A stretch of DNA of 64,000 nt from assembly GCA_964519725.1 (NCBI GenBank), contig CAZFKS010000003.1, positions 15,821-79,820 of the forward strand. The letters are read 5' to 3'. The stretch is from an uncultured Gammaproteobacteria bacterium (GTDB lineage Bacteria; Patescibacteriota; Patescibacteriia; Magasanikbacterales; UBA922). Shown here in pieces: positions 45,955-63,046 of the stretch; position 1 is the stretch's first letter; every line of letters starts with the position of its first letter. Made by a program: the position numbers and the translations under genes. The notes below the pieces were generated by a model. That model was given only the letters and a program-made list of their open reading frames with translations. It did no database searches and was not told the origin of the DNA.

Positions 45955-45997
45955 GACTGGGTTCGTTCTTTCTTCCACGCTCGTCTGACGGCACGAT

Positions 45998-48586: not shown

Positions 48587-49354
48587 TTAGGGCCCGGCCA
48601 GGGTCAAGCGTGCATGCTCGTCGGCCGCCGTTTTCAAGCACGCTTTCTTGGAAATAGCCTTCTGCACCTTCGCGTCCTCGTACCCCTGGTCACGCTGCCT
48701 CAAGAATGCTGTTCGGAGCACCTCCCAAGGGAAGATCCCGTCCACGGCGACTCTCCGTAGCTCCTCGACGGTGATAAGGATGTGAATTCGGCCGCGCAGC
48801 CAATCATGAAACAGATCACCGGCATAGCCCTTCCCGCTACCGAACCCGAATCCCGCGGCAGAGAATGCCACGCCGAAGGTGCAGCCGTGACTACTCATGC
48901 GGCCGCAGTGCTGAGCCCAATCTGCAGGCCCCATCGGAGCTATGTGGTTCTTCGCCTCCATGTAGAGGTTCGGTCCGGCGACGACCGCCATCCCAGCGCC
49001 GAGAATTCGGTCGATACGGTCGGGGAATACCTCGCCCTTACCATCGATGGTCCATCGGTTGCTGAGCCCACCTTTCTGTACGTCCCGCGCCACTCCACCT
49101 CTTTCGAGAAAGTAGCGCGCCACATCCTCCAATGGATCGCCCTTCACCGCTGTTGTCTGGTTGCCAGCCGCGGGGAGGTTTGCCTGCGTCGACGTGATAA
49201 AAGCGCGGTAGAGCTGCCGATAGGCCGCGGGATCCCAGCCGCCGAGAACCGCGTACGTGGCCTCGTACACCGCCCCCATCCCGCCAAGTTCATGAACCCG
49301 AGCGGCAATGGCCATCAGATGGCTAACATCCGGCTCAGGCGTGGGCGCGGTCAT
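48587..49354 (-). CDS. hypothetical protein translationally coupled to the 3' end of the Type ISP gene
   Basis: 255-aa ORF from ATG 49354, overlapping the upstream gene by about 20 nt. Gly-rich GFGFGSGKGYAGD segment. No family recognised. Confidence 0.45.
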   Translation of the reverse strand: MTAPTPEPDVSHLMAIAARVHELGGMGAVYEATYAVLGGWDPAAYRQLYRAFITSTQANLPAAGNQTTAVKGDPLEDVARYFLERGGVARDVQKGGLSNRWTIDGKGEVFPDRIDRILGAGMAVVAGPNLYMEAKNHIAPMGPADWAQHCGRMSSHGCTFGVAFSAAGFGFGSGKGYAGDLFHDWLRGRIHILITVEELRRVAVDGIFPWEVLRTAFLRQRDQGYEDAKVQKAISKKACLKTAADEHARLTLAGP

Positions 49355-52300
49355 CAAGGGCCCCTTCGGCCAAGAAGAACCGGATTCTGATCACCACGTC
49401 GTGCGGGCCATCGACGACGCGCGCGCACTCAGGGCAGGCGCTATTATACCGTCCTGCGAGCGCGAGGCTCTGAACACGGTCGGCGCTCGGCTCCTCCGGC
49501 CCGACGGCGCCGTTGCAGACCCGGTGATGAGGAATGAATCTCGCTCGAAACCATCCAACAAGCAGGAGCGCCAGCATGGCGTCACGAGCGGGCTCAGGAT
49601 TCCAATCTTTGCTGATCATCGCCGCAAGTGGGACTTGCCCGTCCAGCGTCGCAGCACCCACTTCAGCAGAGCGGCGTATGAACGCTGCGGCCTCCGCGGG
49701 CTCGAGGCGGAAGGTGCGCCTCAAGATCTGAATTGACCGGCCAAGAATGTCCCTGGGCGCTTCATCCTCGGCCGCCGCTGGATCCAGTTTGCCGGTCAAA
49801 CCACGAATAATCCGAACGGATTCGACCGCGACGGTGACCGCCTTCTTTAGAAGCCCAACAATATACATCGGATCGGACGACGCATCGTTCGGGTCCGACG
49901 CTATGCCGCTGTCCCTATCGGATGACGCCTCGTACTGATCCATCACCCATTCGAGGGGTGTCCGACCATTGATGACGTACTCATGTGCCTCGGGAGGGAT
50001 ACCGGCGAGCATAAGAGAAGAGTTTACACAGATACAGCTCTTGTCTACCTTCTTGCCCTCCCGCGCATATTGCATTCGGGTCACACGATAGGCACCTGGG
50101 TCGCGAGTCAGCGCAGTCCATTGCTCGCGCAGCGGGTACTCCGCTGCGGTCTCGTACCCCACATGCAGGGCAGAAAGCCTTCGACCGGCCGCAGCGAACG
50201 CGTCGAATGCACGACTCAGCGGAATGCGAGGAGGTTGGACCTTCAACTCGTTGGCGAACCGATCGCGATAATCGGGAGAGTGAAGAACGCCATAGACATA
50301 GAAGAAGATATCTTCCTTGGTGATGTCGTCTCGCGCGTAGCTGACACGGAACCAGTTTAGCGCTGCGTCTGTAATCGCCTCCCGGCGTCCACCAATTTGG
50401 TCGCCCGACGTTGCCTGAAAGAGATCAGTGGGCGACCCCTCGGCGGCGTAGACGAATCTCGGAAAGAACTGCGTGCCATCCGGAGCCACCTTCGAGTCTG
50501 GCAAGGTATCGGTCATTAGCACCGAGAACGCCCGTCGAGTTCCTGCCGCCGGCACGCAGATGGCGAGGTTCGGCGAGTTCGCCCCCGGAAACATCTCGGG
50601 GAGTTCGCCAACCAGTTCATTCATCCCGCGGTCGAAGTAGACCCACTTCTTGCAAAAGGGACGATACAACGCGCGTACGATGCGCTCTTCCGAGAACGGA
50701 TGGTCCCTTCCTGCCTTCAAAGCGTTTTTTAGACCGCGGCTCCATTTGATGCGGCGCTCGTCACGGTCAATGAAGGACTCTATGTCGAGCCATTGGGCTT
50801 TCTTGCGGCCGCTATTCGCCTTCCGGTAAGCAATGACATGCTGGTTGTAGACGGCGCTCATTCGTCGCATGTTGGCGGCCACTGCTGCAGCCGAGAAGCC
50901 ATACGCCCAGGCGTCGCGATTGGTCACGATGCCTGACGCGTACGTGCTGAACACGGTGAGCGGCTCGGTTCTGTCGCGGTCCTTTTCACCAAGCGCCAGG
51001 AGATGGCCGAAGTCGTCGCCTCGCTGTCTGACCCAGTCCCCCGCCGCGTTCGGCGTCACCTCGACCCAAGGCACTCCCTTGACGCTCTGGAACTCGGCCA
51101 CGCGCTGGAGCTTCTCGGGCGCGGTTAGGTAGTCGCCAATGTCATGGTAGAGCAGTCGCCTGGGTTGTGCCGCGGATGGATTACGCACGAGGACCGTAAT
51201 CGCGACTCCCGCCCTGCTTCCAGAACCGAATACCTTTCCGCCCTCCATCCGTGAAACAACGCCCTGGGTGCGCTGATCCCCACGAAGGTCGAAGCAATAG
51301 ATCGAGGTGAACTCGTCCCCAACACACTTCCGGAACCCGTCCATTGTCTTCTTCGACACGATGGCGCCGTTGCTTACGAACGCAATGACCCCTCGTTCCT
51401 TCAGGCGGTCGCTGGCCCATCTGAACGCCCGAATATACGAGTCGTAGAGGTTTCTTACCAAGTCCGCGCTTGAACTCGCCGCATAGGTTTGGCGGATACG
51501 TTCGTCGAGCTGAGGGTATTCGAGGTTCACGTTCCCGTCGTTCTGGCTCTCCTGCCCCACCGACCATGGTGGATTGCCAATTACGACGCGAATATCGGTC
51601 TCGTTCTGCAAAGCAGCCCGCCGATTGTTCTCTGGGAACATTGAGGCGAGGGTAGTCCCTCGCGTCTCGGTCATCTGAAAGGTGTCGGTTAGTACGATCC
51701 CCGGAAATGACTCGTATGGGGCTCCGGACAGCGCGTGGTAGGTGCTCTCGATGTTCACAGCCGCGATGTAGTACGCAAGCAAAACGAGCTCGTTGGCGTG
51801 AAGCTCTTTCAAATACTTGCGGCGGAGGTCCGCGCGGGCAATGAGGCCGCTCTGAAGTAGGCGAACGAGGAAGGTGCCTGTACCCGTAAACGGGTCCAGG
51901 ACGTGCACCCCCTCAGCCGAAAGACCGACGCCGAACTCCGCTGTCAGCACCGCCTGTACGCTGTGAATGATGAAATCCACGATCTCGACGGGGGTGTAGA
52001 CAATGCCAAGGCGTTCCGCCGTCCGCGGGAATGCGGTCCGGAAGAACTTGTCGTAAAGTTCAATGACGATGCGCTGCTTGCCTTCGGCATTATCGATCCC
52101 GCGTGCGCGGATTCGAACGCTCTCATAGAAGCTCTCCAGGGCCACCGTTTCCTTTTCGAGGTTCTCCTCCTGGAGTGCATCCAGCATCTTCTGCATGGCC
52201 ACGGAGACTGGATTCGAGCGAGTGAACTCATGCCCATCGAATAGCGCGTCGAAGACTGGGCGAGTGATAAGATGCTGCGAGAGCATTTCAATCGCGTCAT

Positions 52301-54551
52301 CTCTGCTGACGCTGGGATTCAGACTCGCTTGCAGCTCGGCAAGGAACTCTGCAAAGGCACGGCGCGCGACGCTACCCTTTCCATCCACAAGGGCCGATAT
52401 TCGAGCGACGTGACGTTCCGCGATTTCAGCAACATCCTTTGCCCAAGTCTCCCAGTAGCGCCGGTCTCCGCACTTTTCGACGATGCGCGCGTAAATGGCA
52501 TCGCGCCACTCCCCAATCTGCGGGAATGCGAGGTAGTATTGCTGCCCCTCACCATTCGGCGCGCGGCTCTGGCTCGTACCCTCGGTCTCGCGGCCCGAGA
52601 CGCCGACTACTTGGATCTGCGGTGGTCTGGTCTTGTTCAGTTCCAGCTGATTGATGGTCGCATTAAACCGGTCATCGTGCGCCCGCAGGGCCTGGAGAAC
52701 CTGCCATACGACTTTGTACTTCTGATTGTTTTTGAGGGCTTCATCCGGGCGCATGTCGGCAGGAATCCCGATAGGAAGGATGATGTACCCGTACTGCTTA
52801 CCTTCAGCTCGTCGCATCACCCGGCCAACCGACTGCACGACGTCGACGACCGAGTTTCGGGGGTTTAGAAACATGACGGCGTCGAGCGCAGGCACGTCCA
52901 CGCCTTCTGAGAGGCAGCGGGCATTCGAGAGGACCCGGCAGATCCCATCGCCGCCGGACTCTGCCTTCAGCCAATCAAGTCGTGCATTCCGCGCCAGCGC
53001 ATTGAAGGTACCATCCACATGGTCGACCTCGCACCGCAGCAGGCCTGGCTCTTCGGGATGCTCCTTGATGTAGGACTCGACAACCTGACCAAACAGGCCG
53101 GTGATTCGTTTGCTGTCTTTGATTGACCGGCAAAACGCCACCGCCCGCTTCATCGGAGCTGGGTCGGTCTCAGTCGCAGCTGAATCCTCGGTGAACCGCT
53201 TCGCGAGGCCGTTCCAGCACCCGGTGATCTTGACCGCGTCCTCGAGCCGGAGCTCGGAATCTTCGTCCGCGAGCTGCTTTTGGAACGTGCGGCTCACGTA
53301 TTTCTCGTCGACCGCGAGCACCATCACCTTGTAATCGGTGAGGAGTCCGGAGGCGACCGCTTCGGAAAACCCGAGCCGATGGAACTCCGGACCGTAGAGC
53401 CGTTCGTCGTCCATGGACGCGATCTCAGCGTCGTTCTCCTCGGCCTTCGTCTTGGTGACGTCGCTGAAGATACGCGGCGTGGCGGTCATGTATAGCCGGC
53501 GCTGAGCACGCACGAAGTCGCCGTCATGGACTCGGACGAAGTGCGATTCATCCTCGTCGGCGAGTTTCACGCCGGTCGTGCGGTGAGCCTCATCGCAGAT
53601 AATGAGGTCGAACTCCGGGAGCCCCTTTTTCTGAGCATCGGCGACTGCCTGGATCGACTGGTAGGTCGAGAAAACGACCGTGAGCTTTCCGTTGCCACCG
53701 TGCTTCCCGGCCTTTGCGAGGAGAGCGGCGTTGGTAGTGGCAGGGAACGCCAAGTCATGCGTGTGGAGGTCCTCGCTGTCGGCCGGCCGTCCGACCTGGG
53801 TATCCGAGCACACCGCGAACGCGCGAAGTTTCCGGCTCGCCTCCGAGGTCCACTCGCGGAGGGACTGAGAAAGCAGGGAGATCGATGGAACAAGAAACAG
53901 GACCGTAGCCGACTCTTTCGGAGTGAGTTCCTCGGCGATGCGAAGGGCAGTGAACGTTTTGCCGGTCCCGCAGGCCATGATTAGCTTTCCACGGGCGCTC
54001 GTCCGGAAACCATCACGTACTTTTCCTAGCGCGACCTGTTGATGCGGACGAAGGTCTTTCCGTTTGCGGAGCTGGATGTCCTCGGGCTTCCTGAGACTGA
54101 ACCGGCTCCAATCGATTGGACTTTCCGCCAGGTCCTGAACGCGAAGGCGCGTTACCGGAAGCGTCTGTCCGGTAAGCGCGTCCTCGGCATGCTTACTCCA
54201 CCGGTCAGTGGTGGAAACCAAGAGCCGGGTCGTGAAGGGTGCCTTTCCAGAGGCCGTGAAAAAAGAGTCGATATCGCCCTTCTGAAGATAGTGATCCGGG
54301 TCGAAGAACTTGCACTGGATAGCGCAGAAGCCTTCGGTCTCGCGCTCGCGCGCCACGAGGTCAATGCCCGTGTCCGGGCGGTGGCCACGCTCGGGCCATT
54401 CATTCCACAGCCACACGTCGCTGAACCGAGCCTTGTAAAGGGGGTCGGTCCGGAGATACGCCGCGATCAACCGCTCGAAGCGGTCGCCCTGGTCTCGCTT
54501 GGAGCGGGCTCCGACGCGCAGTTCGTCAAGGATGGCGTGAATCGAGGGCAT
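49335..54551 (-). CDS. Type ISP-like single-polypeptide restriction-modification enzyme: N-terminal Mrr-family PD-(D/E)xK nuclease, SF2 helicase-like ATPase, gamma-class N6-adenine DNA methyltransferase, C-terminal target-recognition region
   Basis: DTGIDLVARERETEGFCAIQCK (D...E.K nuclease); MACGTGKTFTAL Walker A; LIICDEAHRTTG DEAH box; VLDPFTGTGTFLV (MTase motif I); VIGNPPWSVGQ (motif IV NPPW); 1,738 aa. Confidence 0.75.
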   Translation of the reverse strand: MPSIHAILDELRVGARSKRDQGDRFERLIAAYLRTDPLYKARFSDVWLWNEWPERGHRPDTGIDLVARERETEGFCAIQCKFFDPDHYLQKGDIDSFFTASGKAPFTTRLLVSTTDRWSKHAEDALTGQTLPVTRLRVQDLAESPIDWSRFSLRKPEDIQLRKRKDLRPHQQVALGKVRDGFRTSARGKLIMACGTGKTFTALRIAEELTPKESATVLFLVPSISLLSQSLREWTSEASRKLRAFAVCSDTQVGRPADSEDLHTHDLAFPATTNAALLAKAGKHGGNGKLTVVFSTYQSIQAVADAQKKGLPEFDLIICDEAHRTTGVKLADEDESHFVRVHDGDFVRAQRRLYMTATPRIFSDVTKTKAEENDAEIASMDDERLYGPEFHRLGFSEAVASGLLTDYKVMVLAVDEKYVSRTFQKQLADEDSELRLEDAVKITGCWNGLAKRFTEDSAATETDPAPMKRAVAFCRSIKDSKRITGLFGQVVESYIKEHPEEPGLLRCEVDHVDGTFNALARNARLDWLKAESGGDGICRVLSNARCLSEGVDVPALDAVMFLNPRNSVVDVVQSVGRVMRRAEGKQYGYIILPIGIPADMRPDEALKNNQKYKVVWQVLQALRAHDDRFNATINQLELNKTRPPQIQVVGVSGRETEGTSQSRAPNGEGQQYYLAFPQIGEWRDAIYARIVEKCGDRRYWETWAKDVAEIAERHVARISALVDGKGSVARRAFAEFLAELQASLNPSVSRDDAIEMLSQHLITRPVFDALFDGHEFTRSNPVSVAMQKMLDALQEENLEKETVALESFYESVRIRARGIDNAEGKQRIVIELYDKFFRTAFPRTAERLGIVYTPVEIVDFIIHSVQAVLTAEFGVGLSAEGVHVLDPFTGTGTFLVRLLQSGLIARADLRRKYLKELHANELVLLAYYIAAVNIESTYHALSGAPYESFPGIVLTDTFQMTETRGTTLASMFPENNRRAALQNETDIRVVIGNPPWSVGQESQNDGNVNLEYPQLDERIRQTYAASSSADLVRNLYDSYIRAFRWASDRLKERGVIAFVSNGAIVSKKTMDGFRKCVGDEFTSIYCFDLRGDQRTQGVVSRMEGGKVFGSGSRAGVAITVLVRNPSAAQPRRLLYHDIGDYLTAPEKLQRVAEFQSVKGVPWVEVTPNAAGDWVRQRGDDFGHLLALGEKDRDRTEPLTVFSTYASGIVTNRDAWAYGFSAAAVAANMRRMSAVYNQHVIAYRKANSGRKKAQWLDIESFIDRDERRIKWSRGLKNALKAGRDHPFSEERIVRALYRPFCKKWVYFDRGMNELVGELPEMFPGANSPNLAICVPAAGTRRAFSVLMTDTLPDSKVAPDGTQFFPRFVYAAEGSPTDLFQATSGDQIGGRREAITDAALNWFRVSYARDDITKEDIFFYVYGVLHSPDYRDRFANELKVQPPRIPLSRAFDAFAAAGRRLSALHVGYETAAEYPLREQWTALTRDPGAYRVTRMQYAREGKKVDKSCICVNSSLMLAGIPPEAHEYVINGRTPLEWVMDQYEASSDRDSGIASDPNDASSDPMYIVGLLKKAVTVAVESVRIIRGLTGKLDPAAAEDEAPRDILGRSIQILRRTFRLEPAEAAAFIRRSAEVGAATLDGQVPLAAMISKDWNPEPARDAMLALLLVGWFRARFIPHHRVCNGAVGPEEPSADRVQSLALAGRYNSACPECARVVDGPHDVVIRIRFFLAEGALDDRAHA

Positions 54552-54938: not shown

Positions 54939-55625
54939 CTACTCGACCGTGCCATCGGCGCGGGCCGCGAGCTGCTCCCGGAGCGCCCCGAGCCGCTCCC
55001 ACGCTTCGTCGAGCTGGAGCCGCATCTCGCGGGCCGCCTTCTCGTCGAGCCCATCCAACTTCGCCGGCGTCAGTCGCTTCAGGTTCAGCCCGTCGAGCGC
55101 CTTCATGACCTTGCGAAGGTTCTTCACCGGCTCTGGCTCCGGCTTCCGTCCCCGCTTCTCCCCCGGAATCTCCTTGGCCCGGACCTTCTTCACCCGCTGC
55201 TCGAGCTCGCGCTTCCCGAGGTTCTTCTCGATAGCTTCGCTCGCGAGCTTCAGCTTCTTCTCCGGGTCCTTGACCGGCAGGAGGAGCTTGTGGTGCGAGA
55301 GCGGGAGCGCCTCCGCGATGTTCTCGGGCAGCTGCTTCAGCTGGTCCACGACCGCGACCGCGTTCCAGATGAACTGGTAGTTCACTCGGAGGTCCGTCCG
55401 CTCCCCGAGCTTTCGGAACGTGACGTGCTTCCTTCCGTGCGTGCGGAAGTTCGCCGTGTCCCCGTCAAAGAACCGGTCGAGGACGTACGACCCGATGGCC
55501 CGGGTCATCTCGAGGCCCTTCGCTACGTAGAGGCGGTTGATCTCGGCAACCGCCTCGGACAGCGCGGCCTCGTCGACTTCGCCACCTTCTTCCGGAACCA
55601 CTGCGAGCGTCTTCTCACGCGCCAT
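54939..55625 (-). CDS. ParB/KorB-like nuclease-domain protein
   Basis: LSHHKLLLPVKDPEKKLKLASEAIEKNLGKRELEQRVKKV resembles the ParB HTH/linker region; 228 aa. Coordinates from ORF track. Confidence 0.45.
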   Translation of the reverse strand: MAREKTLAVVPEEGGEVDEAALSEAVAEINRLYVAKGLEMTRAIGSYVLDRFFDGDTANFRTHGRKHVTFRKLGERTDLRVNYQFIWNAVAVVDQLKQLPENIAEALPLSHHKLLLPVKDPEKKLKLASEAIEKNLGKRELEQRVKKVRAKEIPGEKRGRKPEPEPVKNLRKVMKALDGLNLKRLTPAKLDGLDEKAAREMRLQLDEAWERLGALREQLAARADGTVE

Positions 55626-55692
55626 GGCGGCACCTCCAGAGCAGGGACGCTAATCCCCTCCACGCCCTAGGTCAACTCGGAATCAGGTGCTT

Positions 55693-55708
55693 GTTTCCGC
55701 GGGGAAAC
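55693..55708. promoter_or_regulatory. 16-bp near-palindrome GTTTCCGCGGGGAAAC (copy 3, one asymmetric position)
   Basis: About 68 nt upstream of the ParB-like gene start; next to element B copy 1. Confidence 0.45.
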
Positions 55709-55731
55709 ATGCCGTCCCGCAGGGACGTGCT

Positions 55732-55868
55732 TCCCCCTCTGGGGGAGGGGTGGCCGTGAAGCGGGCGGCCCTCCGGCATAGGGGGACCGAGGGGGTGACG
55801 GGGCCAGCGGCCGCCCCGCCCCCAAGGGGGGCGGAAGCGCCGCGGCCATAAGAAGATAGGCCCACCCG
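55732..55868 (-). repeat. element B copy 1: about 137-bp GC-rich multi-hairpin element just downstream of the P-gene stop
   Basis: TCCCCCTCTGGGGGAGGG...GCCGCCCCGCCCCCAAGGGGGGCGG...GATAGGCCCACCC; about 88% identical (by eye) to 61125-61263. Confidence 0.6.
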
Positions 55869-55871
55869 CAT

Positions 55872-56228
55872 TTATTCATTCTGCCTGGCCGCAAGCGCGG
55901 CGCGGAGACGGCGGGCGCGCCGGTCAAGCGAAACAAGCGTCTTCGCGAGTTCGGCCGTAGGGAGCCGGTGGTAGTACTCGAACATGACGGCTTCCCAGTC
56001 GAAGACAAGGGCGGCGTCGGGCTCGCCCGGCACCGAGAACGCGACGGACGCGGCGTAGATTTCCATCGCTATCGGCTCGTCCTGGGCGTGCAGCGTGAAC
56101 GCGAGGCCCGTCGACTCGACGAACGCCGCGAGCTGCGTCGGCGATGGGCGCCGGGATGGAAACGCGGACCGTAGCCGGTCGGCTATCCCCCGTGCGGTGG
56201 CGAGCCGGTTCTTTCGGTCGCGGGTCAT
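55872..56228 (-). CDS. small protein, family P member 1 (unknown function)
   Basis: 118 aa; homologous to the genes at 56225-56587 and 61268-62005 (QLAAFVESTGLAF...ALVFDWEAVMFE...LDRRARRLR). Confidence 0.5.
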   Translation of the reverse strand: MTRDRKNRLATARGIADRLRSAFPSRRPSPTQLAAFVESTGLAFTLHAQDEPIAMEIYAASVAFSVPGEPDAALVFDWEAVMFEYYHRLPTAELAKTLVSLDRRARRLRAALAARQNE

Positions 56229-56587
56229 AGGACTGCAAGTCGGGCGGCGAGCGCGGCGCCAACCGTCTGGGCCTCGGCGTCAAGCCGAAGAATCTCTTCG
56301 GCGAGCTCTTCCATGGTCCAGTGGCTGCCGAAGCCGAAGAGCGCTTCGTCGCCAAAGAGGGCGCCTGACACAAGGGACGTACCTGAAAGCGGAATCGTGA
56401 GTGGCGCGACGGCGACGAACGCCCGGAACCCGGTTTCCGGGTCGTGCGTGTCAATGAGCCTGACGGTAAGGTCCGAAAAAGACACGAAAGCGGCGATGTC
56501 GTCGTGCGTCGGCGCGTCCGGGAGCTCGTCTCGAAGGCGCTCGGCGAGTGCAAGAACCTCGGGTGAATAGGTCGTATCAGCGGTCAT
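56225..56587 (-). CDS. small protein, family P member 2 (unknown function)
   Basis: 120 aa; overlaps member 1 by 4 nt; shares the DDIAAFVSF...FRAFVAVAPLTIPL core with the paralogs. Confidence 0.5.
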   Translation of the reverse strand: MTADTTYSPEVLALAERLRDELPDAPTHDDIAAFVSFSDLTVRLIDTHDPETGFRAFVAVAPLTIPLSGTSLVSGALFGDEALFGFGSHWTMEELAEEILRLDAEAQTVGAALAARLAVL

Positions 56588-56993
56588 ACGGAACGGTTAC
56601 GAACAAGAGTGCGAGCCCGCGAGTGGTCGGGGCGGCGCGCGGAACACGTGGTTGCCGGTGGTGGTCGAGGTCGTGTCATAGGAGGCGGGCCGGGGCCGTT
56701 ATCCGCCCCGCGGCTCCCGCGTGGCGACTGGACTCCCTGCCCGATACCGGGAGCCGATTAGCCAGGCGGCCCGTCCACAGGTCAAGGCCCTCGGCCGCTC
56801 TCGGACGGGCGCCTTGCCGCCCGGGGGTAACCTGTGGGCGGACGTCTGGCAGGCTCAACCGGCAGGGCGGGAGGCCGGGAGCTGAGCGGGACCGCTCGTG
56901 TTCGCGTTGTCTCTCGGCTGTTGGCTGTTCGGGTGGGCCTGTCCGGCCGACGTGCGCCGTGGGGCGCCGACGGCAAGGACTCCTTATGGGGGG
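56588..56993 (-). repeat. element A copy 1: about 400-bp conserved non-coding leader directly upstream of the P-gene start codon (candidate structured RNA / regulatory leader)
   Basis: About 95% identical (by eye) to the split copy at 62006-62367 plus 62797-62853. Contains long GC stems, e.g. CGGCTCCCG...CGGGAGCCG and GGCGGCCCGTCC...GGACGGGCGCC. Track ORFs over it are Arg/Pro-rich artefacts. Confidence 0.6.
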
Positions 56994-57056
56994 AGCCGCG
57001 CCGCGGCGACTAAGTCCCCCATGGAAGCCCGGCGCGCGCGGGCGCAGCGATAGCGT

Positions 57057-57072
57057 GTTTCCCCGGGGAAAC
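57057..57072. promoter_or_regulatory. 16-bp palindrome GTTTCCCCGGGGAAAC (copy 4)
   Basis: Between the SMC-like ATPase gene stop and leader element A copy 1. Confidence 0.5.
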
Positions 57073-57172
57073 AGCATGACCTGGCGCGCTTGCGGCCACG
57101 TTCGCACCCAACCGCGTTCCCACGGCGACGGCCGTTCGTTCGCCACATTTGGCCGAGTTGCGCCACCGCTTC

Positions 57173-58957
57173 CTACTTCACTTCGCCGAGGAAGTGCGGA
57201 CTCTTGGGCCCCTGGAAGGTCGGGGCCCAGGTCTCATCGATCCCTGCCGGCACAACCTCAATATCGGTGGCGCTGTACACGAGCTGAATGGGCGGGTCAG
57301 TCGTCGAGATCATCTTCTTGAACTCAACGACGAAGTCTCGTAGGTCCTCGGCGCTCAGCTCTTGTTGACGGGGCGCATCCAAGATAAGAACTCGGGGATG
57401 CTGCCCGTTCGTCTTGAGCGAGGCTTCGACGAGTGCGGCGTGATATGCGAGCACGAACCGGGCTCGCGTGCTGCCCGAATGACCAGAACCCTTCTTGAAG
57501 ACTTCTCCGTCCACGACGAATCGAAAATCTTCATCCCACGTGACGTCGAGAGCGGTGTTAGGAGTTCGGAGGACCGCCAGCCACCTTCGCGCTGCACCGG
57601 CCAATGCTGATCGAGCGTCGAGGACCCGGTCTCCCGGGCCGCTCCGCCTCGCTCGTGGACGGAGGGAGTCAACTAACTCGGCTTCGGCCCGCTCGCGGTC
57701 GAGAAGGGCGTTGAGCTGGGCTCGCTCGCGCTCGATGCGCTGCAGCCGATCGAGACGGACCCGAACGTCACCGATCTCTCTACTCAGGGTGTCAAGCATG
57801 GCCACGACCGATTCGCCGGGGCTCCGGGCGAGGCCGTCAGTCTTCTCTTTGACGGTAGTATCGAGGGCCGCCTGCGCTTCAGCGAGCTGCGAACCAAGCA
57901 GCCCGATTTCGGTATTCGCGTCCCCGATCCCCGTGACGAAGTCCTTGAGCTGGTCCCTCAAGTAGAGCACCCGGCGGCCATATGACGCTTCCGGGTTCCG
58001 GAAAAACTGGCAACTGCCACTGCCGCACAGCCTTCGGAACACGTCGGCCGCAATTTCGTTCTGTTCGAGAGCAGACAACTCGGTCTCAATCTCGGCCTGA
58101 GCGGCTTGCACCTGCATCATCCGACGCCTCAGGGCGCCATGTCGTTGGCCTAGCTCGTCGCGAATCCTCGTTGCCTCTCGGATTCGGCCATCGTAGACCG
58201 CACTGTCCGCAGCCAACACCTCGAGTGCGGAGTACATCCGAGTTAGCTCGCGCTCCAGGGTCGCGTGCCGCTCCCGAAGTAGAACCGCGCCATCGGGGCT
58301 GGCATCGGCGCCAGTTTCGCGCTGGAGCGCTTCGAGCCCGAGCCTCTTGAACGATATCTGTTCGCGTGTGCCGCCAAGACGTTCTTCAGCGGTTCGGAAG
58401 GCAGACTTGTCGACGGGCTTGTGCTTCGGTGGCAGGTCGAGGAGCCACCGCACCACTTCCTCGCGCTGGTCTCGCACGAACGTAGCTGTCGGCTCGTACC
58501 CGGTGGTCCAGCCCCCGTCCTGCTCAACCAAGAACATCGGGCCAGCCACGCTCAGGTACGCCGGAACTGGAGAGCCGTCACCACTTGAGGTGAGAGTCCG
58601 CGGCGCCGTACCGATTCTCGGAAGTACCCACGCCGAGAGTTCTCGCTCGGTTGCGATTTCGGTGCGCTCGCCGTCAGGTCCCTGAACGCGCACCTCAACT
58701 CCCTTTGCAACGATCTGCCGTTCGAGCGTGTGCTCGCCTAGGCCATCCGTGAGAACGAGGCGGACTGCTTGGCAGCGCTCGCGCACGTCCTTCGGGAACT
58801 CCACCGGAAGCCCCAGCGCGTACATAATCGCCTTCATTACCGGCGTCTTGCCGGAGCCGTTCGGCCCGAGGACCACCGTCGTGTGGCGCCCGAAGCGGAG
58901 TTTGCCAGAGCCCCAGCCTGCTTCGCCCCGCGGGAGGATTTCGAATTCAGTGAGCAT
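57173..58957 (-). CDS. SMC/ABC-type ATPase with central coiled coil (LmuB/DdmC-like)
   Basis: VVLGPNGSGKTPVMKAI Walker A at N-terminus; long Ala/Arg/Glu/Leu-rich coiled coil; C-terminal RVLILDAP Walker-B-like box (Asp-Ala rather than Asp-Glu). ATG overlaps upstream stop (ATGA). Confidence 0.7.
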   Translation of the reverse strand: MLTEFEILPRGEAGWGSGKLRFGRHTTVVLGPNGSGKTPVMKAIMYALGLPVEFPKDVRERCQAVRLVLTDGLGEHTLERQIVAKGVEVRVQGPDGERTEIATERELSAWVLPRIGTAPRTLTSSGDGSPVPAYLSVAGPMFLVEQDGGWTTGYEPTATFVRDQREEVVRWLLDLPPKHKPVDKSAFRTAEERLGGTREQISFKRLGLEALQRETGADASPDGAVLLRERHATLERELTRMYSALEVLAADSAVYDGRIREATRIRDELGQRHGALRRRMMQVQAAQAEIETELSALEQNEIAADVFRRLCGSGSCQFFRNPEASYGRRVLYLRDQLKDFVTGIGDANTEIGLLGSQLAEAQAALDTTVKEKTDGLARSPGESVVAMLDTLSREIGDVRVRLDRLQRIERERAQLNALLDRERAEAELVDSLRPRARRSGPGDRVLDARSALAGAARRWLAVLRTPNTALDVTWDEDFRFVVDGEVFKKGSGHSGSTRARFVLAYHAALVEASLKTNGQHPRVLILDAPRQQELSAEDLRDFVVEFKKMISTTDPPIQLVYSATDIEVVPAGIDETWAPTFQGPKSPHFLGEVK

Positions 58958-59436
58958 CAGAGTAGCTCCAGACCTCGGAGTCGAACCCGCTCGTGTGCCT
59001 TTGCGAGTGATCGAACAAGCGCACCAACATCGGTAATTTGAACCCGCAGATCCGAAAGAAGTGCCCGGCCGGTGGCGGAGGTGCTGACGCGACGAAGCGA
59101 CCCCTCGACCACATCAACCAAGCCAACAGTCTCAAGAATTGCGAGACCATCGGCGCACCGAGCGCGAAGCGAAACAGACCACTTCAGTCGACTTCTCGTC
59201 CCTCCGTCCGGGTCGAATCGCTCTGCAAGCACCGCGAGTGTCCATGTGGCTAGTTCACTGGTGCGGAGTTCGCCGTGACGCGCGTGTGTCACGACAAGAA
59301 TCGCGAGTGCGATAAGAGGCGTGTGGAAGAGCGTGTCGGCCGACAGGCCAGCTACGCGGTCGAGCCCGTCGGCGTTGACCTGCAACCGGACGTTTGCCGC
59401 CATTGCTGCTTCGATCAATTGTTCGAGGGTCCTCAC
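58957..59436 (-). CDS. small middle subunit of the three-gene operon (LmuC/DdmB-position protein)
   Basis: 159-aa ORF (GTG start at 59436, or ATG 59403) overlapping both neighbours. Confidence 0.45.
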   Translation of the reverse strand: MRTLEQLIEAAMAANVRLQVNADGLDRVAGLSADTLFHTPLIALAILVVTHARHGELRTSELATWTLAVLAERFDPDGGTRSRLKWSVSLRARCADGLAILETVGLVDVVEGSLRRVSTSATGRALLSDLRVQITDVGALVRSLAKAHERVRLRGLELL

Positions 59437-60605
59437 GGCTCCGCCTCGACAGCCAGCGCCAGGATCGCGCCGAAAACGAGTGACTTGGTGAGTGGCTTCG
59501 TGGCGCCAATTGTGGCGTACCTCTGTGCGAGTGCACTCGCCTCATTCACGAGCCAGTCTAACGCCTTTCGGTCGGACACGTAGATCCGGAGCACGTCGCG
59601 GCAGTCCTTCTTTAGCAGGAGCAGGTCAGCAAGGTCGATCGTGGATCGTTCGGCGATAACCCACTCATCCCATCCCGTCTTCAGCTGACACCAGTCGGGA
59701 ATATGTGATTCGTCAATGCCGCTTCGCTGACAAAGCCGGTGAAGGCGCGAAAGAGCTACTACAGTTTGAAGGCCGGTCTCCTTAAGCGCTCGGTATCCCG
59801 TCGCCGAGAGGCTGAGGAGCTTTAGGATGTCCTCGAGGACGAGCGCCTTTTCCGACCGCAAGTCTGCCGGTGTCGACGGAAGGGCCTTCAGCACACGCTG
59901 GGACTTTCCGCGCACGACCGTGACAAGGCTTTCGCCGATGCGGAGTGCCTCGGACATTCGCAGGTCGACCTCAGAGAGCTTTCGAATTCGATTGCCGATC
60001 TCCAGCCGGCAGACGTCCTGATCGTGGAGTTTCCCGACGCACTCCTGCACGTGGAGACGCTGGAGGAAGGAGAGGAAGCTGGCCTCATCAAGACCAGGAA
60101 CCGCGGCCGGAAGGACTGCCACGACGTCCTGAAATATCCGAAGCGACTCACCGGCAAGCTGCGAATGAGAGGTGACGTTCTTCGCCTCCGTCAACAGGGC
60201 GTCGAACTCCGACGCAACCGCGGCGTTCGTGACGAAGACGAATCGGGCGCAACGCCCTCCGAAGCGAGTGGTGTGATCGAACATCTTCGGAAAAATGGCG
60301 GTCGCGTCGGCGGTGTACGGTGCCCTACGTCCTTTGAGCCCGAAGAACTCCTTCCACGACCAGGGACCTTCACTCGGCGAGCGGGTCTTCACCTGGTGGA
60401 ATCGGTACGAGATTATCGTGGCTTCCTCGAATACGTAGTCATCATGCCACTCGCAATAGATGCACACGTACTGATTTTCATCGAGAACGAGAAGCGCATC
60501 GTATGCCGCTTGATGATATTGGAACTCATAACGAGCGCCGGTGACGGCGCCGACCTGCTCGCGCGGCTCGCTCTGAAACAGTTCACGTCCGACCGGAGCG
60601 CTCAC
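59433..60605 (-). CDS. DUF4297-like (Cap4/LmuA-type) PD-(D/E)xK nuclease-domain protein, candidate effector
   Basis: N-terminus GARYEFQYHQAAYDALLVL then CEWHDDYVFEE...FHQVK fits the D...QxK restriction-endonuclease-like core; 390 aa; GTG start. Confidence 0.55.
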   Translation of the reverse strand: MSAPVGRELFQSEPREQVGAVTGARYEFQYHQAAYDALLVLDENQYVCIYCEWHDDYVFEEATIISYRFHQVKTRSPSEGPWSWKEFFGLKGRRAPYTADATAIFPKMFDHTTRFGGRCARFVFVTNAAVASEFDALLTEAKNVTSHSQLAGESLRIFQDVVAVLPAAVPGLDEASFLSFLQRLHVQECVGKLHDQDVCRLEIGNRIRKLSEVDLRMSEALRIGESLVTVVRGKSQRVLKALPSTPADLRSEKALVLEDILKLLSLSATGYRALKETGLQTVVALSRLHRLCQRSGIDESHIPDWCQLKTGWDEWVIAERSTIDLADLLLLKKDCRDVLRIYVSDRKALDWLVNEASALAQRYATIGATKPLTKSLVFGAILALAVEAEP

Positions 60606-60984
60606 CGCAGGTCACCTCTTGTCCAGTCAGTGCCTTGAGGTGCGCGCGGTCACGCACCGTAGGCAGATCCCGTTCATCGCCGATACAGTAAGTGGGGCGG
60701 AGGTAGGCGTCAATCCGGGAAATTGCGGAAGCACCGAGTTCTCTTTGGGGGAGGAGACGGAGGAGACGGCAACTTCCCGCGGTCAAATCCATGTGCGGTC
60801 CTGTCCCACTGGCTGCGCCCGAAATGCCCGTCGACAGCAAGAACAGGTGATCGTCTTCTTCGCGAACAGGGACGATGAAACGCGAGTCCAATGCCCGCAT
60901 GGGCGGGACCGCGGCTGACAGGACGTCCTCGTCGACTGGAAGGACGCCCGGGAGTGAAGATGCAGGCGCGTTGCTATCATCCAT
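60583..60984 (-). CDS. possible 133-aa ORF at the head of the operon
   Basis: ATG at 60984 lies 51 nt downstream of a GTTTCCCCGGGGAAAC palindrome and overlaps the next gene by 23 nt. No domain. Could be spurious. Confidence 0.25.
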   Translation of the reverse strand: MDDSNAPASSLPGVLPVDEDVLSAAVPPMRALDSRFIVPVREEDDHLFLLSTGISGAASGTGPHMDLTAGSCRLLRLLPQRELGASAISRIDAYLRPTYCIGDERDLPTVRDRAHLKALTGQEVTCGERSGRT

Positions 60985-61034
60985 GAGAACCCGTCCTGGC
61001 GACCGGGATTACGGAGCGTCAACGGAGCAAGCCT

Positions 61035-61050
61035 GTTTCCCCGGGGAAAC
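61035..61050. promoter_or_regulatory. 16-bp palindrome GTTTCCCCGGGGAAAC (copy 5)
   Basis: 51 nt upstream of the ORF starting at 60984. Shares flanks cctGTTTCCCCGGGGAAACacg with copy 1. Confidence 0.5.
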
Positions 61051-61124
61051 ACGCCAGGCGCGCGTTGTCGAAAGACAGCAGCCGGCCAAGCGTTCTCGTT
61101 CGCGGGCGATGCCGCGAACGGACA

Positions 61125-61263
61125 TCCCCCTCTGGGGGAGGGATGGCGGCGAAGCCGACGGCACTCCGGCACAGGGGGACGGGAGGGGGTGACGGGGCCA
61201 GCGGCCGCCCCGCCCCCCGAAGGGGGCGGAAGTGGCGCGGCCATAAAAAGATAGGCCCACCCG
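61125..61263 (-). repeat. element B copy 2
   Basis: Same hairpin series immediately downstream of the family P member 3 stop. Confidence 0.6.
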
Positions 61264-61267
61264 GCTG

Positions 61268-62005
61268 TTAGTCTTCGGTTGCTAGCATGATGGTTGCGAC
61301 GATTTCGAGCTGGTCGCCGCGGTGAACGGCTACGACAAGGGACACCGCGCCGACTTCAAACGGGAGGCGCTCGCCAAGGTCAACGCCGCCTGCGGCCTCG
61401 ATGGCTTCGCGGGCGCCGGCGAGCGCGGCGAGGATTTCGAGGCCGCCGCGGTCCTTCTCGTCGCGCGGCTTGCCAGCCCGGAGGTCCGCGAGCGCACCCA
61501 CCGTGATTGCGACCGGCACCGGAAACCCGGCCGTGCGGGCGACCCCTTCGGCATCTATGAGGACGCCGTCCCCGATTGCCTCGGCGCGGGTGTAGCTGAA
61601 CACGTAGGCGCTCCGGTCCGCGAGTCGGTCCGGCGACCGAACCGGGAACTCAAAGAGCCAGGCAAAGCGAATCGCCCGCGCCCGTTGGTCAAGGCAGTCG
61701 AGCGCGTCCGCGACCTCGGCGGGTTCAAGCGTCTCGGGCTCGCCCGGCTCGAACGCGAACGCCTCGCGGTCGAATACGAGCGCGGCCCATTCGTCCCGTA
61801 CGCCCGTCTTGACCGTAAGCGGGAGGGCCGCGGCGTAGATGGCAAAGTCGTGCTCCGCATGAAGACGCGACAGCTCGAACGCCAAGAGCGGCGAGGCGGA
61901 CACGAACGCGGCAAACTGGTAGTGCCGCGGCCGCGCGTCCGGGAACTGCTCGGTATAGGCGGTCCGAATCTCGGTAAGCGTGGGCGGCGTAGTGCGGTAT
62001 AGCAT
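61268..62005 (-). CDS. family P member 3 (245 aa, N-terminal P-family core plus C-terminal extension)
   Basis: N-terminal 115 aa align with members 1 and 2 (QFAAFVSASPLLAFELSRLHAEHDFAIYAAALPLTVK...ALVFDREAFAFEP...LDQRARAIR). Flanked by the same A and B elements. Confidence 0.5.
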   Translation of the reverse strand: MLYRTTPPTLTEIRTAYTEQFPDARPRHYQFAAFVSASPLLAFELSRLHAEHDFAIYAAALPLTVKTGVRDEWAALVFDREAFAFEPGEPETLEPAEVADALDCLDQRARAIRFAWLFEFPVRSPDRLADRSAYVFSYTRAEAIGDGVLIDAEGVARTAGFPVPVAITVGALADLRAGKPRDEKDRGGLEILAALAGAREAIEAAGGVDLGERLPFEVGAVSLVVAVHRGDQLEIVATIMLATED

Positions 62006-62367
62006 ACATGATGGTTAGTAAGAGCGGGCCACGGTACCGGGGGCGGTACGTGGTCACGGGACGGCGCGCGGAACGCCGCGGTTACCGGTGGTGGTCGAGG
62101 TCGTGTCATAGGATGCGGGCCGGGGCCGTTATCCGCCCCGCGGCTCCCGCGTGGCGACTGGACTCCCTGCCCGATACTGGGAGCCGATTAGCCAGGCGGC
62201 CCGTCCACAGGTCAAGGCCCTCGGCCGCTCTGGGACGGGCGCCTTGCCGCCCGGGGGCAACCTGTGGGCGGACGTCTGGCAGGCTCAACCGGCAGGGCGG
62301 GAGGCCCGGGAGCCTAGCGGGGCCGCTCGTATCGCGTTGGCTGTTGGCTGTTCGGGTGGGCCTGTCC
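62006..62367 (-). repeat. element A copy 2, proximal part
   Basis: Aligns from the P3 start codon through ...TTCGGGTGGGCCTGTCC, where the alignment is interrupted by a 429-bp insertion. Confidence 0.6.
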
Positions 62368-62796
62368 TTGGGCGCTCACGAGAATTGACCCGGGGTCTGC
62401 TCGTCTGGAGTGATCCAATCGCAGCGTGGGTTGGGTGGTTCGCTCCCGCGGGGTTGCGCTCGTTCCAGTCGGCTGCGAGCCGCGTCCGGCGCACGATCTG
62501 CGACTTCGAACGCAGCCGACTTCCACGACCGCCCATTGGAAGGCCACAAACCGGTTGCTGGACCGTGGGGCCTATGGCATCTTCTCCCTCGTGACGCCGC
62601 TCCGAGTGGTGTCAGCCTCCGTTGGCCCGTGGCAACCGGGCAACGTCGAGGCCATGAGCCGAAAACGTTGTACATCAAAAGTAGTTGGCGGGCGCGCGCG
62701 GTGCTTCGAGACCTGAGGAGCGCGGCTGGGCGGTCGTGTTCCGTCGGTGGATCAGTTTCGGCGAGCACGATTGGATCAGTTCAGGCGAGCACCGAA
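62368..62796. mobile_element. 429-bp MITE-like non-autonomous insertion flanked by 9-bp direct duplication GGCCTGTCC, imperfect terminal inverted repeats
   Basis: Absent from the otherwise collinear copy 1 of element A. GGCCTGTCC present at 62359-62367 and 62797-62805. Ends TTGGGCGCTCACGAGAATTGACC ... GGATCAGTTCAGGCGAGCACCGAA are imperfect inverted repeats, and GATCCAATCG / CGATTGGATC lie near the two ends. Confidence 0.5.
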
Positions 62797-62853
62797 GGCC
62801 TGTCCGGCCGACGTGCGCCGTGGGGCGCCGACGGCAAGGACTCCTTATGGGGG
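62797..62853 (-). repeat. element A copy 2, distal part (resumes after the insertion)
   Basis: GGCCTGTCCGGCCGACGTGCGCCGTGGGGCGCCGACGGCAAGGACTCCTTATGGGGG identical to 56937-56993. Confidence 0.6.
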
Positions 62854-63046
62854 CGCTGCGTCTGACTGCGGTGGCCGTCTACCTCCGAAATCAAGTCGGG
62901 AACCGCTCGCGCGTCGGTAGCACGCTTGACGTGTTCAGGGGCGGACTCGTACCGTCCTCGTTCCGCGTCCGCTCGCCCAGAAGGAGAGGCACCGAGCGGC
63001 GCAGTGGGCTCCCAAGGACCACCACGGGCAACTTTTGAGAGGCGTC

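Follow-up and report, generated by a model that had tools for sequence, protein, structure and literature searches.

The window, the 64-kb stretch of DNA analyzed here, carries on its minus strand a Lamassu operon flanked by two copies of one arrangement: a leader (A), one or two small genes and a trailer (B). Unit 1 runs from 57073 down to 55692 and unit 2 from 62853 down to 61034; the second copy lies 5.4 kb upstream of unit 1, with the Lamassu operon in between. An earlier note had described A and B as repeated in the same orientation on either side of a nuclease/SMC operon, and BLAST bore this out. The core of A (56623–56944 and 62050–62367) aligns at 92.6% identity over 326 nt (E 1e-133), including a 233-nt stretch at 97%, and B (55732–55868 and 61125–61263) at 89% over 139 nt (E 1e-45). 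Profile searches with nhmmer found no third copy of A or B in the 64 kb.

Genes and elements of the two units

The genes between the units are all on the minus strand and are assigned to Lamassu by PADLOC models. A possible 133-aa ORF without a family match (60583–60984) lies upstream of lmuA and overlaps it. LmuA, a Cap4-type nuclease effector (59433–60605), matches Pfam Cap4_nuclease (2.5e-15) and PADLOC LmuA (7e-63), its top PADLOC match being a DUF4297 model (1.3e-65) that PADLOC labels LmuB. LmuC (58957–59436; PADLOC LmuC, 1.1e-15) and LmuB, an SMC/Rad50-like ATPase (57173–58957; PADLOC LmuB, 1.7e-119), complete the operon.

The cargo differs between the units. Unit 1 holds two P-family genes, P120 (56225–56587, minus strand; pI 4.2) and P118 (55872–56228, minus strand), and unit 2 a single gene, P245 (61268–62005, minus strand), in which a P domain (residues 1 to ~118) is fused to a DUF6573-like domain, here called Q; the C-terminal domain of P245 has a pLDDT above 90 in the AlphaFold2 model. 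The three proteins have a common N-terminal domain of ~110 aa at 28–44% identity. The P family is very small: when 1.84 billion representatives were searched exhaustively with HMMER, the three window proteins and three others were returned. The nearest relative of P120 is the first gene of metagenome contig L004 (36%), and P245 is colinear with the P and Q genes of contig L002 (36% over 244 aa). Judged from these likenesses, the cargo subtypes are old, the cargo genes of the two units having diverged anciently.

The first leader, A1 (56588–56992, minus strand), extends from a conserved TAAGGAG to the P120 start codon and comprises a 5' stem-loop, the motif GGCCCACCCG (56930–56939), a long hairpin (~56700–56900) and a uORF-like ATG at 56679. 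The second is split by a 429-nt MITE-like insertion (62368–62796, minus strand), which is bounded by a 9-bp direct repeat, the target-site duplication GGACAGGCC, and has subterminal 24-nt inverted repeats (62398–62421 and 62768–62791) and tandem 21-mers; the window holds no second copy of it. The 5' segment of A2 (62797–62853, minus strand), with a possible -10-like TAAGGAG and the 5' stem-loop, is 100% identical over its 57 nt to 56936–56992, as are the adjoining 29 nt. Its core and leader (62006–62367, minus strand; 92.6% identical to A1, nhmmer E 1e-87) reach the P245 start codon and contain in order the GGCCCACCCG motif, a CA-rich linker, a hairpin of ~230 nt and the CCTATGAC motif.

The trailers, B1 (55725–55868) and B2 (61118–61263), both on the minus strand, follow the genes. 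B2 is a GC-rich multi-hairpin element with CGGGTGGGCC at its start, just past the stop codon. Both L002 and L011 share the opening C(G/C)GGTGGGCCT just 3' of the stop codon.

Two Logan contigs from run SRR11567520, L001 and L017, match the window exactly. L001 has its start within A2 and its end within B2, and L017 begins in the region of B1 and the palindrome, 193 nt 5' of the ParB-HTH gene described below. Since real repeats are where one expects short-read contigs to break, these end points provide independent support for the repeats.

Palindromes and the ParB-HTH gene

The palindrome that the earlier note had placed in each cassette, at a length of 16 bp, measures 18 bp (TGTTTCCCCGGGGAAACA) and has five matches in the window, where chance alone would give 0.03. 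Perfect copies lie at 61034–61051, 49 nt 5' of the first Lamassu ORF, at 57056–57073, between lmuB and A1, and at 39213–39230, 8 nt past the stop codon of a 1962-aa gene, where a terminator hairpin would also fit. A copy with one mismatch lies at 55692–55709 and a further copy, CGTTTCCCCGGGGAAACG, at 45938–45955. The palindrome is therefore found 3' of B in both units and 5' of A1, but not upstream of A2, and the proposed ordered unit stands only without it.

The gene 66 nt downstream of the copy at 55692–55709 (54939–55625, minus strand) encodes a ParB/Noc-type HTH protein of 228 aa. Its Pfam match (HTH_ParB, 9e-5) is weak and covers the HTH alone, no ParB N-terminal (CTP-binding) domain being detected; its best PDB sequence matches are to the DNA-binding domain of Noc (E 0.0045). 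A homologue, 42% identical, occupies the same position in L002, and there an imperfect palindrome, GCGTTCC-TCCGGG-GGAACGC, separates B from the gene.

We set the half-site TGTTTCCCC against those of the consensus parS, TGTTTCAC-GTGAAACA, and of the NBS, TATTTCCC-GGGAAATA (PMC7383237). The outer bases are those of parS (TGTTTC...GAAACA) and the CCC/GGG center is NBS-like; moreover, several copies fall within 22 kb and a ParB-type HTH gene adjoins one. Unlike the 16-bp parS and NBS, however, the palindrome has 18 bp with 9-bp half-sites, the protein is short and matches in its HTH domain alone, ParA was not found, and the palindromes sit at operon boundaries. For palindromes so placed, KorB-type operators would be the closer likeness. 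Because the palindrome resembles ParB/Noc sites and a ParB-HTH gene adjoins it, we read it as a separate operator-like site rather than as part of a cassette, and its further copies at 39213 and 45938 agree with this; the ParB-HTH protein is a candidate binder.

A conserved leader with small genes

Leader A is found beyond this window. We judged its occurrence on the contigs of P relatives and close Q relatives that have enough upstream DNA, and it is present on all of them: L004 (77% identity), L002/L003 (71%), L008 and L011/L012. These represent four other lineages, all metagenome contigs, one of which (L002) comes from a Myxococcales MAG. In each, P-family and/or DUF6573 (Q) genes follow A directly and in the same orientation, although the proteins are only 25–45% identical. 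B lies 3' of the genes in two of the four, namely both whose contigs reach past the genes. The unit is single-copy and Lamassu is absent in these other loci. The earlier description of a cassette-like unit with conserved ends and variable cargo thus holds, A recurring in all four ahead of differing P/Q combinations. Since the order of leader, genes and trailer recurs in this way, the unit is a real, previously undescribed conserved module.

Leader A, about 370–400 nt long, is predicted to fold into a ~230-nt imperfect hairpin with a variable tip, and the same rod is predicted in every lineage. Its invariant blocks, of up to 28 nt, include GAGCCTGCCAGACGTCCGCCCACAGGTT, GCAAGGCGC, GGCCTTGAC(C/T)TGTGGACGG and CGGGCAGGGAG; within the 10-nt motif the GGCCCAC core alone is invariant, with L008 departing. 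Indels of 1 and 2 nt inside the conserved blocks argue that A is non-coding. In the alignment of six sequences, from which the fold itself was derived, 92.7% of cells are paired, against 30–52% when the partners are slid; pair changes on both sides number 8, against 0–4 in the slid controls, over only five lineages; and the covariation score was reached by 0 of 500 shuffles, again with a fold from the same sequences. The covariation is modest because most stem positions are invariant, and a purely structural RNA would not usually be invariant in both arms of its hairpin.

We consider it slightly better than an even bet that both cassettes are paralogs belonging to a single operon type, in which leader A is followed by one to three small, mostly acidic P and/or Q genes and by B, a GC-rich trailer with several hairpins. 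A would be transcribed with these genes as a 5' leader controlling their expression, B would act as a terminator or stabilizer, and the 18-bp palindromes, as operator-like sites for the neighboring ParB/Noc-like protein, would mark the boundaries of transcription units, outside any cassette. Like structured 5' leaders of the riboswitch-like or protein-binding kinds in Rfam, A is conserved upstream of a specific gene family, has conserved stems and a variable tip, and is conserved up to the start codon, beginning at the -10-like TAAGGAG. It differs in matching no Rfam family and in its rod of ~100 bp per arm, both arms being invariant. A has no Shine-Dalgarno sequence, and a possible short uORF in it encodes M-T-x-P-R-P-P-P; a simple scan found no sigma-70 promoter for it.

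Alternative readings of the repeats

Among the alternatives, most weight is left to a single-stranded DNA promoter or priming hairpin of the Frpo/ssi type, a reading that we nevertheless consider unlikely. The region would in that case belong to an integrated conjugative element, as its leading or establishment region, and P/Q would be early establishment or anti-defense genes read from the incoming strand, with one hairpin per gene set as in F-like plasmids. Frpo/ssi promoters are repeated in the leading region of such plasmids (Masai & Arai 1997; PMC11541004), and A likewise is a long hairpin, imperfect and spanning a few hundred nt, that occurs as direct repeats, each directly upstream of different small, acidic, establishment-type genes in the same orientation. 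The cargo includes the plasmid-associated DUF6573, found in 293 PLSDB plasmids, of which 164 are conjugative; in pP33-1 it is the second ORF, at the head of a one-directional array of small genes adjoining virB genes, and it also occurs on a contig with the plasmid-type genes ParA, KfrA and RPA. Moreover, a TTGAC in the 3' arm of A is kept in five of six sequences, with an unpaired bubble at the would-be -10, and as single-stranded DNA the antisense (template) strand of A is predicted to be more stable (-73.2 kcal/mol, z -2.9) than the sense strand (-63.5 kcal/mol, z -1.8). The comparison of 22 G-U cells on the sense strand with 10 A-C cells does not decide between the strands, and A may therefore act at the DNA level. 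Several observations speak against the Frpo/ssi type, however. The -10 position varies (TAATC, CTACC, CGAGT, CGTGC, GATTC), and the -35 straddles a helix junction and is disrupted in L011, being only partly conserved. No relaxase, T4SS, oriT or integrase was found in either the 32 kb of high-GC sequence or the 11.7-kb L002 contig, and the units, interspersed with defense systems, lie in a chromosomal-looking, high-GC defense island. By blastn, A matches nothing in phages or in PLSDB, which should hold Frpo-carrying F-like plasmids, and a tblastn search of plasmids with the ParB-like protein gave no match. Finally, the conservation of A runs beyond the hairpin up to the start codon, which an RNA leader fits better. 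The view that no described element has this architecture therefore needs tempering: A lacks a match in plasmids and a conserved -10, but repeated hairpin leaders as such are documented.

A second and less probable reading is that the repeats exist, or are kept, as recombination handles, exchange between A1 and A2 or between B1 and B2 serving to excise, duplicate or swap Lamassu together with P245. The direct repeats of 320 and 140 nt, 5.4 kb apart, do contain long perfectly identical stretches, and the neighborhood is rich in defense genes both in the window (a Type ISP/IIG RM system) and in L002 (a Type III Mod methyltransferase and a weak STAND NTPase-like match). The concerted evolution of A1 and A2 is clear: they are 93–100% identical, even through the variable hairpin tip, whereas A differs by 23–29% between lineages and the cargo proteins are 28–44% identical. 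This closeness points to gene conversion, and homologous recombination between the repeats, as the earlier note had suggested, is accordingly plausible. The mobilization of Lamassu is another matter, since the other loci hold one unit without it, and a function as handles cannot explain why A and B are conserved as single copies across lineages.

It is improbable that the A-to-B unit is itself mobile, whether as a transposon-like element ending in the inverted 10-mers GGCCCACCCG ... CGGGTGGGCC or as an integron-like cassette. Cargo does differ between conserved ends, the lineages examined conserve both the 10-nt motif of A and the complement of that motif with which B starts, and L009/L010, at 92% amino acid identity to L002, have another downstream context, beside an AAA_22 (TniB-like) gene. 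The motif can, however, pair locally inside B, and the conservation of A runs ~60 nt beyond it. No target-site duplication occurs at the unit borders, and no transposase, integrase or other recombinase was found around the units. Unit 1 and L002 have the same downstream neighbors, the ParB-HTH gene and then an RM system, which suggests inherited synteny rather than transposition. Integron cassettes (ORF plus attC) resemble the units in having a variable small ORF followed by a structured 3' element, here of 130–150 nt, and in their head-to-tail order; by contrast, each unit here has its own 370-nt leader, B lacks the R''/L''/L'/R' pattern of attC core sites, no IntI or attI was found, and just two units are present, separated by a defense operon. 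As a mobile element, therefore, the module is unproven.

Very little probability attaches to a tie between the hairpins and Lamassu itself, for example with palindromic self DNA tuning or decoying the SMC sensor and P/Q acting as modulators. The Lamassu system DdmABC is reportedly triggered by palindromic, hairpin-forming DNA (PMC11707656), and the operon is bracketed by two ~230-nt imperfect palindromes and by perfect 18-bp ones; yet A occurs without Lamassu in every other recovered locus, and being neighbors in one genome counts for little as evidence. The reading we credit least is that of generic REP-type repeats spread genome-wide, or of an artifact of assembly: the contig is metagenome-assembled and has a suspicious GC jump at ~31.8 kb, but in the recovered lineages A and B go together with P/Q genes, substitutions and the 429-nt insertion set the two copies apart, and independent Logan contigs match the window.

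We thus favor paralogous copies of one leader-controlled operon, the likeness of A1 and A2 probably stemming from gene conversion. Such conversion would make the repeats substrates of homologous recombination, and Lamassu could then be lost or duplicated incidentally when they recombine.

Two probable leader-trailer operons around a Lamassu system

From about 31.8 kb onwards, the right half of the window has a GC content of about 61% and reads mainly on the minus strand. In the direction of transcription, it first carries unit 2, composed of the conserved leader A2, the gene for P245 (62005–61268) and the GC-rich trailer B2 (61263–61118), all on the minus strand; A2 is split into a 5′ segment (62853–62797) and a core plus leader (62367–62006) by a 429-nt insertion (62796–62368). 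An 18-bp palindrome (61051–61034) stands between B2 and a Lamassu operon (60984–57173, minus strand), in which a possible 133-aa ORF is followed by LmuA, LmuC and LmuB. Further along come a second palindrome (57073–57056) and, again on the minus strand, unit 1 with the leader A1 (56992–56588), the genes for P120 and P118 (56587–55872) and the trailer B1 (55868–55725). A third palindrome (55709–55692), a ParB-HTH gene (55625–54939, minus strand) and the gene for a 1738-aa Type ISP/IIG restriction-modification (RM) enzyme (54551–49335, minus strand) complete the arrangement. The cargo is unequal: unit 1 holds two genes of P, a rare small-protein family, and unit 2 a single gene whose P domain is fused to the DUF6573-like Q.

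The earlier note had described one ordered unit, palindrome included, occurring twice in the same orientation on either side of a nuclease/SMC operon. The two repeated units are real: the A core aligns over 326 nt at 92.6% (E 1e-133), the 5′ segment of A is identical between the copies over 57 nt plus an adjoining 29 nt, and B1 and B2 share 89% over 139 nt (E 1e-45). These statistics rule out chance as the origin of the repeats. The order of A, genes and B holds in both units; the palindrome, however, is 18 rather than 16 bp long and is missing upstream of A2, which is itself interrupted. Within the 64 kb, nhmmer profile searches with A and B returned these two copies of each and nothing further. 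The window is matched without a difference by two short contigs of an independent assembly of run SRR11567520; one (L001) runs from inside A2 to inside B2, and the start of the other (L017) falls in the B1/palindrome region, a short way ahead of the ParB-HTH gene. Genuine repeats are expected break points of short-read contigs.

The operon between the units encodes the SMC-like ATPase LmuB (PADLOC, 1.7e-119), LmuC (1.1e-15) and the effector nuclease LmuA (7e-63), with a Pfam match to Cap4_nuclease at 2.5e-15; by these matches, it is a Cap4-nuclease-type Lamassu system. The putative 133-aa ORF (60583–60984), for which a family match is absent, runs 23 nt into lmuA and would open the operon. Palindromic, hairpin-forming DNA has been reported as a trigger for Lamassu (PMC11707656), and in view of that response, the placement of the operon between two long imperfect palindromes is curious, but elsewhere A is found with no Lamassu beside it.

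At 31745–31810, just past a textbook intrinsic terminator, the GC content of the contig jumps from about 43% to about 61%. The low-GC half (1–31800) has the housekeeping genes for HisRS, signal peptidase and RibB and also encodes a T4SS-pilin-like protein and one of 3762 aa, and the high-GC half (31800–64000) encodes MopE-repeat and lectin proteins together with the defence genes. Either the MAG contig is chimeric or the jump marks a very foreign island.

The unit in other lineages

Very few proteins carry the P domain: among 1.84 billion representatives, a profile search retrieved just six, three from the window and three others. We compared the contigs encoding these three others and the closest relatives of Q. 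Wherever a contig has enough upstream DNA, A immediately precedes the first gene in the same orientation: at 77% identity over 246 nt in L004, at 71% over 271 nt in L002/L003 from a Myxococcales MAG, and likewise ahead of the first gene in L008 and L011/L012. Protein identity across lineages is 25–45%, despite the invariant A blocks GAGCCTGCCAGACGTCCGCCCACAGGTT, GCAAGGCGC, GGCCTTGAC(C/T)TGTGGACGG, CGGGCAGGGAG and C(C/T)TATGAC. In L002 and L011, the last gene’s stop codon is closely followed by B, which opens with C(G/C)GGTGGGCCT and continues into GC-rich hairpins that include an invariant CCCTCCCC-NAGN-GGGGGA. Between these ends the gene sets differ: P-P in unit 1, P fused to Q in unit 2, P, Q and P′ in L002, Q and P′ in L011, P and Q in L008, and P plus a second, possibly P-like gene in L004.

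The recurrence of A and B around such varied P/Q cargo marks them as the conserved boundaries of one particular small-gene module, and upholds the suggestion of a cassette-like unit with variable cargo. Generic repeats of the REP/BIME type, the possibility against which that suggestion had been set, should occur as many unlinked, dispersed copies; the two A and two B copies in the 64 kb all lie beside P/Q genes, and the same linkage is found in four other lineages, which sets A and B apart from generic repeats. A 24-nt pattern from A1 was unmatched in genome and metagenome collections, a second pattern from an invariant A block matched the known Myxococcales contig and L006 only, and viral scans matched L007 and L018. 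We treated L006, L007 and L018 as chance, these being isolated matches of 19–33 nt; those in L006 and L007 fall inside apparently coding sequence, with the other A blocks absent. A word-based homologue search with P245 returned P245 itself only, and in a tblastx comparison of the window with L002, high-GC noise swamped the signal.

Downstream of its module, L002 carries an imperfect palindrome (GCGTTCC-TCCGGG-GGAACGC), a ParB-HTH gene, whose product is 42% identical to that of the window, and then a Type III methyltransferase, an order of neighbours shared with unit 1, where the RM enzyme is of Type ISP. In both, the ParB-HTH gene is followed by RM (Type ISP/IIG, 49335–54551; Type III Mod, 9607–11346 of L002, E 3e-157), and leader operon, ParB-like gene and RM may form a conserved neighbourhood. 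In the JGI contigs L009/L010 (124–843), the P and Q genes are 92–93% identical to those of L002 at the amino acid level, and the downstream context differs, with a Cu-oxidase and an AAA_22/TniB-like gene; neither a B element nor a ParB gene was found downstream of P/Q there. The altered context is a hint that the module has been rearranged or is mobile.

Against DUF6573 (PF20213), P245 scores 21 bits and Q119 of L002 24 bits over its full length, with a cut-off of 27. Although these single scores are below the cut-off, a three-sequence Q profile retrieves 74 proteins, nearly all annotated as PF20213, and by this retrieval Q probably belongs to DUF6573. The family occurs in 293 PLSDB plasmids, 164 of them conjugative. 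On pP33-1 it is the second ORF, heading a long series of small unknown genes that all point one way, beside virB genes, and a contig of a Sedimenticola MAG has it among ParA, KfrA and RPA genes. The P/Q proteins are mostly strongly acidic (pI 4.1–5.1); AlphaFold2, run on the single sequence of P245, gave a pLDDT of 36. From the genomic context, a role in establishment, anti-defence or regulation is a reasonable guess.

Element A and its relation to known elements

Since 1- and 2-nt indels fall inside conserved blocks of the cross-lineage alignment, A cannot be coding. Its conservation starts at the 5′ boundary with (C/A)nTAAGGA(G/A), which is followed by a small stem-loop, the motif GGCCCACCCG and a CA-rich linker of variable length. 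The main hairpin is imperfect, about 230 nt long, and its tip varies in length and sequence by lineage; 3′ of it come a second small hairpin and C(C/T)TATGAC plus CGACCACCACC. In most lineages TTCGTAACC stands just ahead of the start codon, and the alignment has no Shine-Dalgarno sequence there.

Each lineage’s A folds independently to the same rod. In the six-sequence alignment, 92.7% of the cells are paired, as opposed to 30–52% when the partners are slid; both-side changes occur at eight pairs (0–4 in the slid controls), and the observed covariation score was reached by none of 500 shuffles. These data are good evidence that A is a conserved hairpin. The support from covariation as such is modest, because most stem positions are invariant, the lineages number five, and the structure was tested on the sequences it came from. 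The sense strand has 22 G-U cells versus 10 A-C cells. Folded as single-stranded DNA, the antisense (template) strand does better, at −73.2 kcal/mol (z −2.94; 1 of 200 shuffles as good). Rfam returned nothing in the window at gathering thresholds, and chance-level matches only at E up to 5. A would be a conserved structured leader outside the classes known to Rfam, its novelty lying in A itself and its link to DUF6573/P.

Two smaller features of A were observed. An ATG frame reading M-T-x-P-R-P-P-P is conserved in A1 (56584–56679), with equivalents in A2, L002, L004, L008 and L011 and synonymous third-position changes between lineages; in A1 it spans 31 codons, and its stop overlaps the P120 start (ATGA). 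It could encode a polyproline leader peptide, which we take as a lead only; open frames of at least 27 codons are expected by chance at the local GC, and no Shine-Dalgarno sequence precedes its ATG. Also, the A motif GGCCCACCCG (56930–56939; 62353–62362) complements CGGGTGGGCC (55859–55868; 61254–61263), with which B starts just past the stop codon. The pair is conserved in the lineages examined, the GGCCCAC core alone being invariant in A, and could represent putative long-range 5′–3′ pairing or paired protein sites; the B 10-mer is also able to pair locally, inside B.

Architecturally, the closest analogues of A are the repeated Frpo/ssi hairpin promoters in plasmid leading regions (PMC11541004). 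Like these, A has a long hairpin, is repeated and sits ahead of small genes; its long stem-loop can form in the template strand of the downstream genes, and the rod is kept in five lineages. Unlike them, A shows a TTGAC kept in five of six sequences but a −10 position that varies freely. A consensus scan finds no promoter in A, and the sigma-70 candidate TTGACC-17-GCTAAT in A1 was dropped, its −10 not being conserved. Relaxase, T4SS and integrase were not found (Pfam, larger ORFs, window 32–64 kb and L002), and blastn with A matched neither 72,556 plasmids nor phages. Lacking a conserved −10, conjugation genes nearby and sequence similarity, A was rejected as an Frpo element.

The two copies of A have a recent history in common. 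By comparison of their sequences, the two cargo types are old: P120 has its closest relative in the first gene of L004, the P+Q gene pair of L002 is colinear with P245, and pairwise identities among the window’s three P domains are only 28–44%. A1 and A2, in contrast, are 93–100% identical, including the hairpin tip and linkers that vary freely between lineages. Selection on A alone is thus insufficient, and, as far as the sequences tell, A1 and A2 must have exchanged sequence recently, through gene conversion or cargo replacement between conserved flanks. This exchange is the best support for the earlier proposal that the repeats are recombination substrates; it does not extend to excision or exchange of the Lamassu operon. 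At the other loci, all of which lack Lamassu, A is present without it.

The insertion at 62368–62796 is visible against the uninterrupted A1. Its 429 nt are flanked by a 9-bp target duplication (GGACAGGCC) and contain two tandem 21-mers as well as 24-nt inverted repeats (88% identity) in subterminal position; a transposase gene and a second copy are both absent from the window. By these features it is MITE-like, and its arrival would postdate the duplication or homogenisation of A. It is the sole part that, from its sequence, behaves as a mobile element. For the whole A-to-B unit, a transposon or MITE was rejected, the inverted 10-mers being internal to A and the borders having no target duplication; no transposase was found around the units. 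An integron cassette fails as well, with no integrase in the ORFs scanned and no attC core motifs in the GC hairpins of B. Of the interpretation in the earlier note, one part holds, in that the repeats bound a cassette-like module as its conserved ends and do recombine; the sequences show neither mobility of the unit nor excision of Lamassu.

Palindromes, ParB-like protein and meaning

The 18-bp palindrome, TGTTTCCCCGGGGAAACA, lies downstream of B in both units and upstream of A1, and two more copies are far from the cassettes (39213–39230 and 45938–45955), adjoining genes for large secreted-type proteins. In total there are five copies, against 0.03 expected by chance, every one where one minus-strand transcription unit borders the next; the ParB-like gene starts 66 nt downstream of one copy and the Lamassu operon 49 nt downstream of another. 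The consensus parS half-site is TGTTTCAC and that of the Noc site NBS is TATTTCCC (PMC7383237), each site being a 16-bp palindrome; the window half-site TGTTTCCCC is a parS/NBS hybrid with one extra base. A ParB-type HTH (Pfam 9e-5) is present in the neighbouring 228-aa protein, whose only solved sequence relatives are Noc DNA-binding domains (E 0.0045); a ParB N-terminal domain was unmatched in it, as was the protein itself in plasmids (tblastn). In L002, both the palindrome and the ParB-HTH protein have diverged from those of the window. We read the palindromes as putative operator-like sites of this neighbouring protein, presumably acting in the fashion of KorB operators. Alternatively, they could act as terminator hairpins; the copy at 39213 sits 8 nt past the stop codon of a 1962-aa gene. 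Whether operator or terminator, the palindromes are not components of the cassettes.

The most likely explanation, in which we place moderate confidence, is that of two paralogous operons, each with a structured leader and trailer, which would lie inside a ParB-like operator network within a defence island. A bolder reading strikes us as improbable, namely that A is a new class of hairpin element, at the DNA or DNA and RNA level, that drives or gates expression of the acidic P/DUF6573 proteins. A would then serve as a single-strand promoter resembling Frpo, or as a palindromic signal for SMC-type sensors, and the very acidic proteins would be anti-defence, establishment or self-control factors of the adjacent defence systems (Lamassu in the window, RM systems in both loci), with the module under ParB/Noc-like operators and reshuffled by recombination between its conserved ends.

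The finding does not itself reveal a new defence or mobility mechanism. It does offer a possible example of a ParB/Noc-type HTH protein and operator-like palindromes punctuating a defence island. The non-coding flanks of the defence operon have clearly evolved in concert, which bears on the rearrangement of defence islands. Should A be a functional leader, it would represent a new non-coding, structured motif of some 250 nt, unusual in its invariance, with identical blocks of up to 28 nt in lineages whose proteins share about 30% identity. A is linked to a very rare partner family and to DUF6573, whose function is unassigned and which is widespread on conjugative plasmids, and this linkage provides a concrete handle on DUF6573 function.
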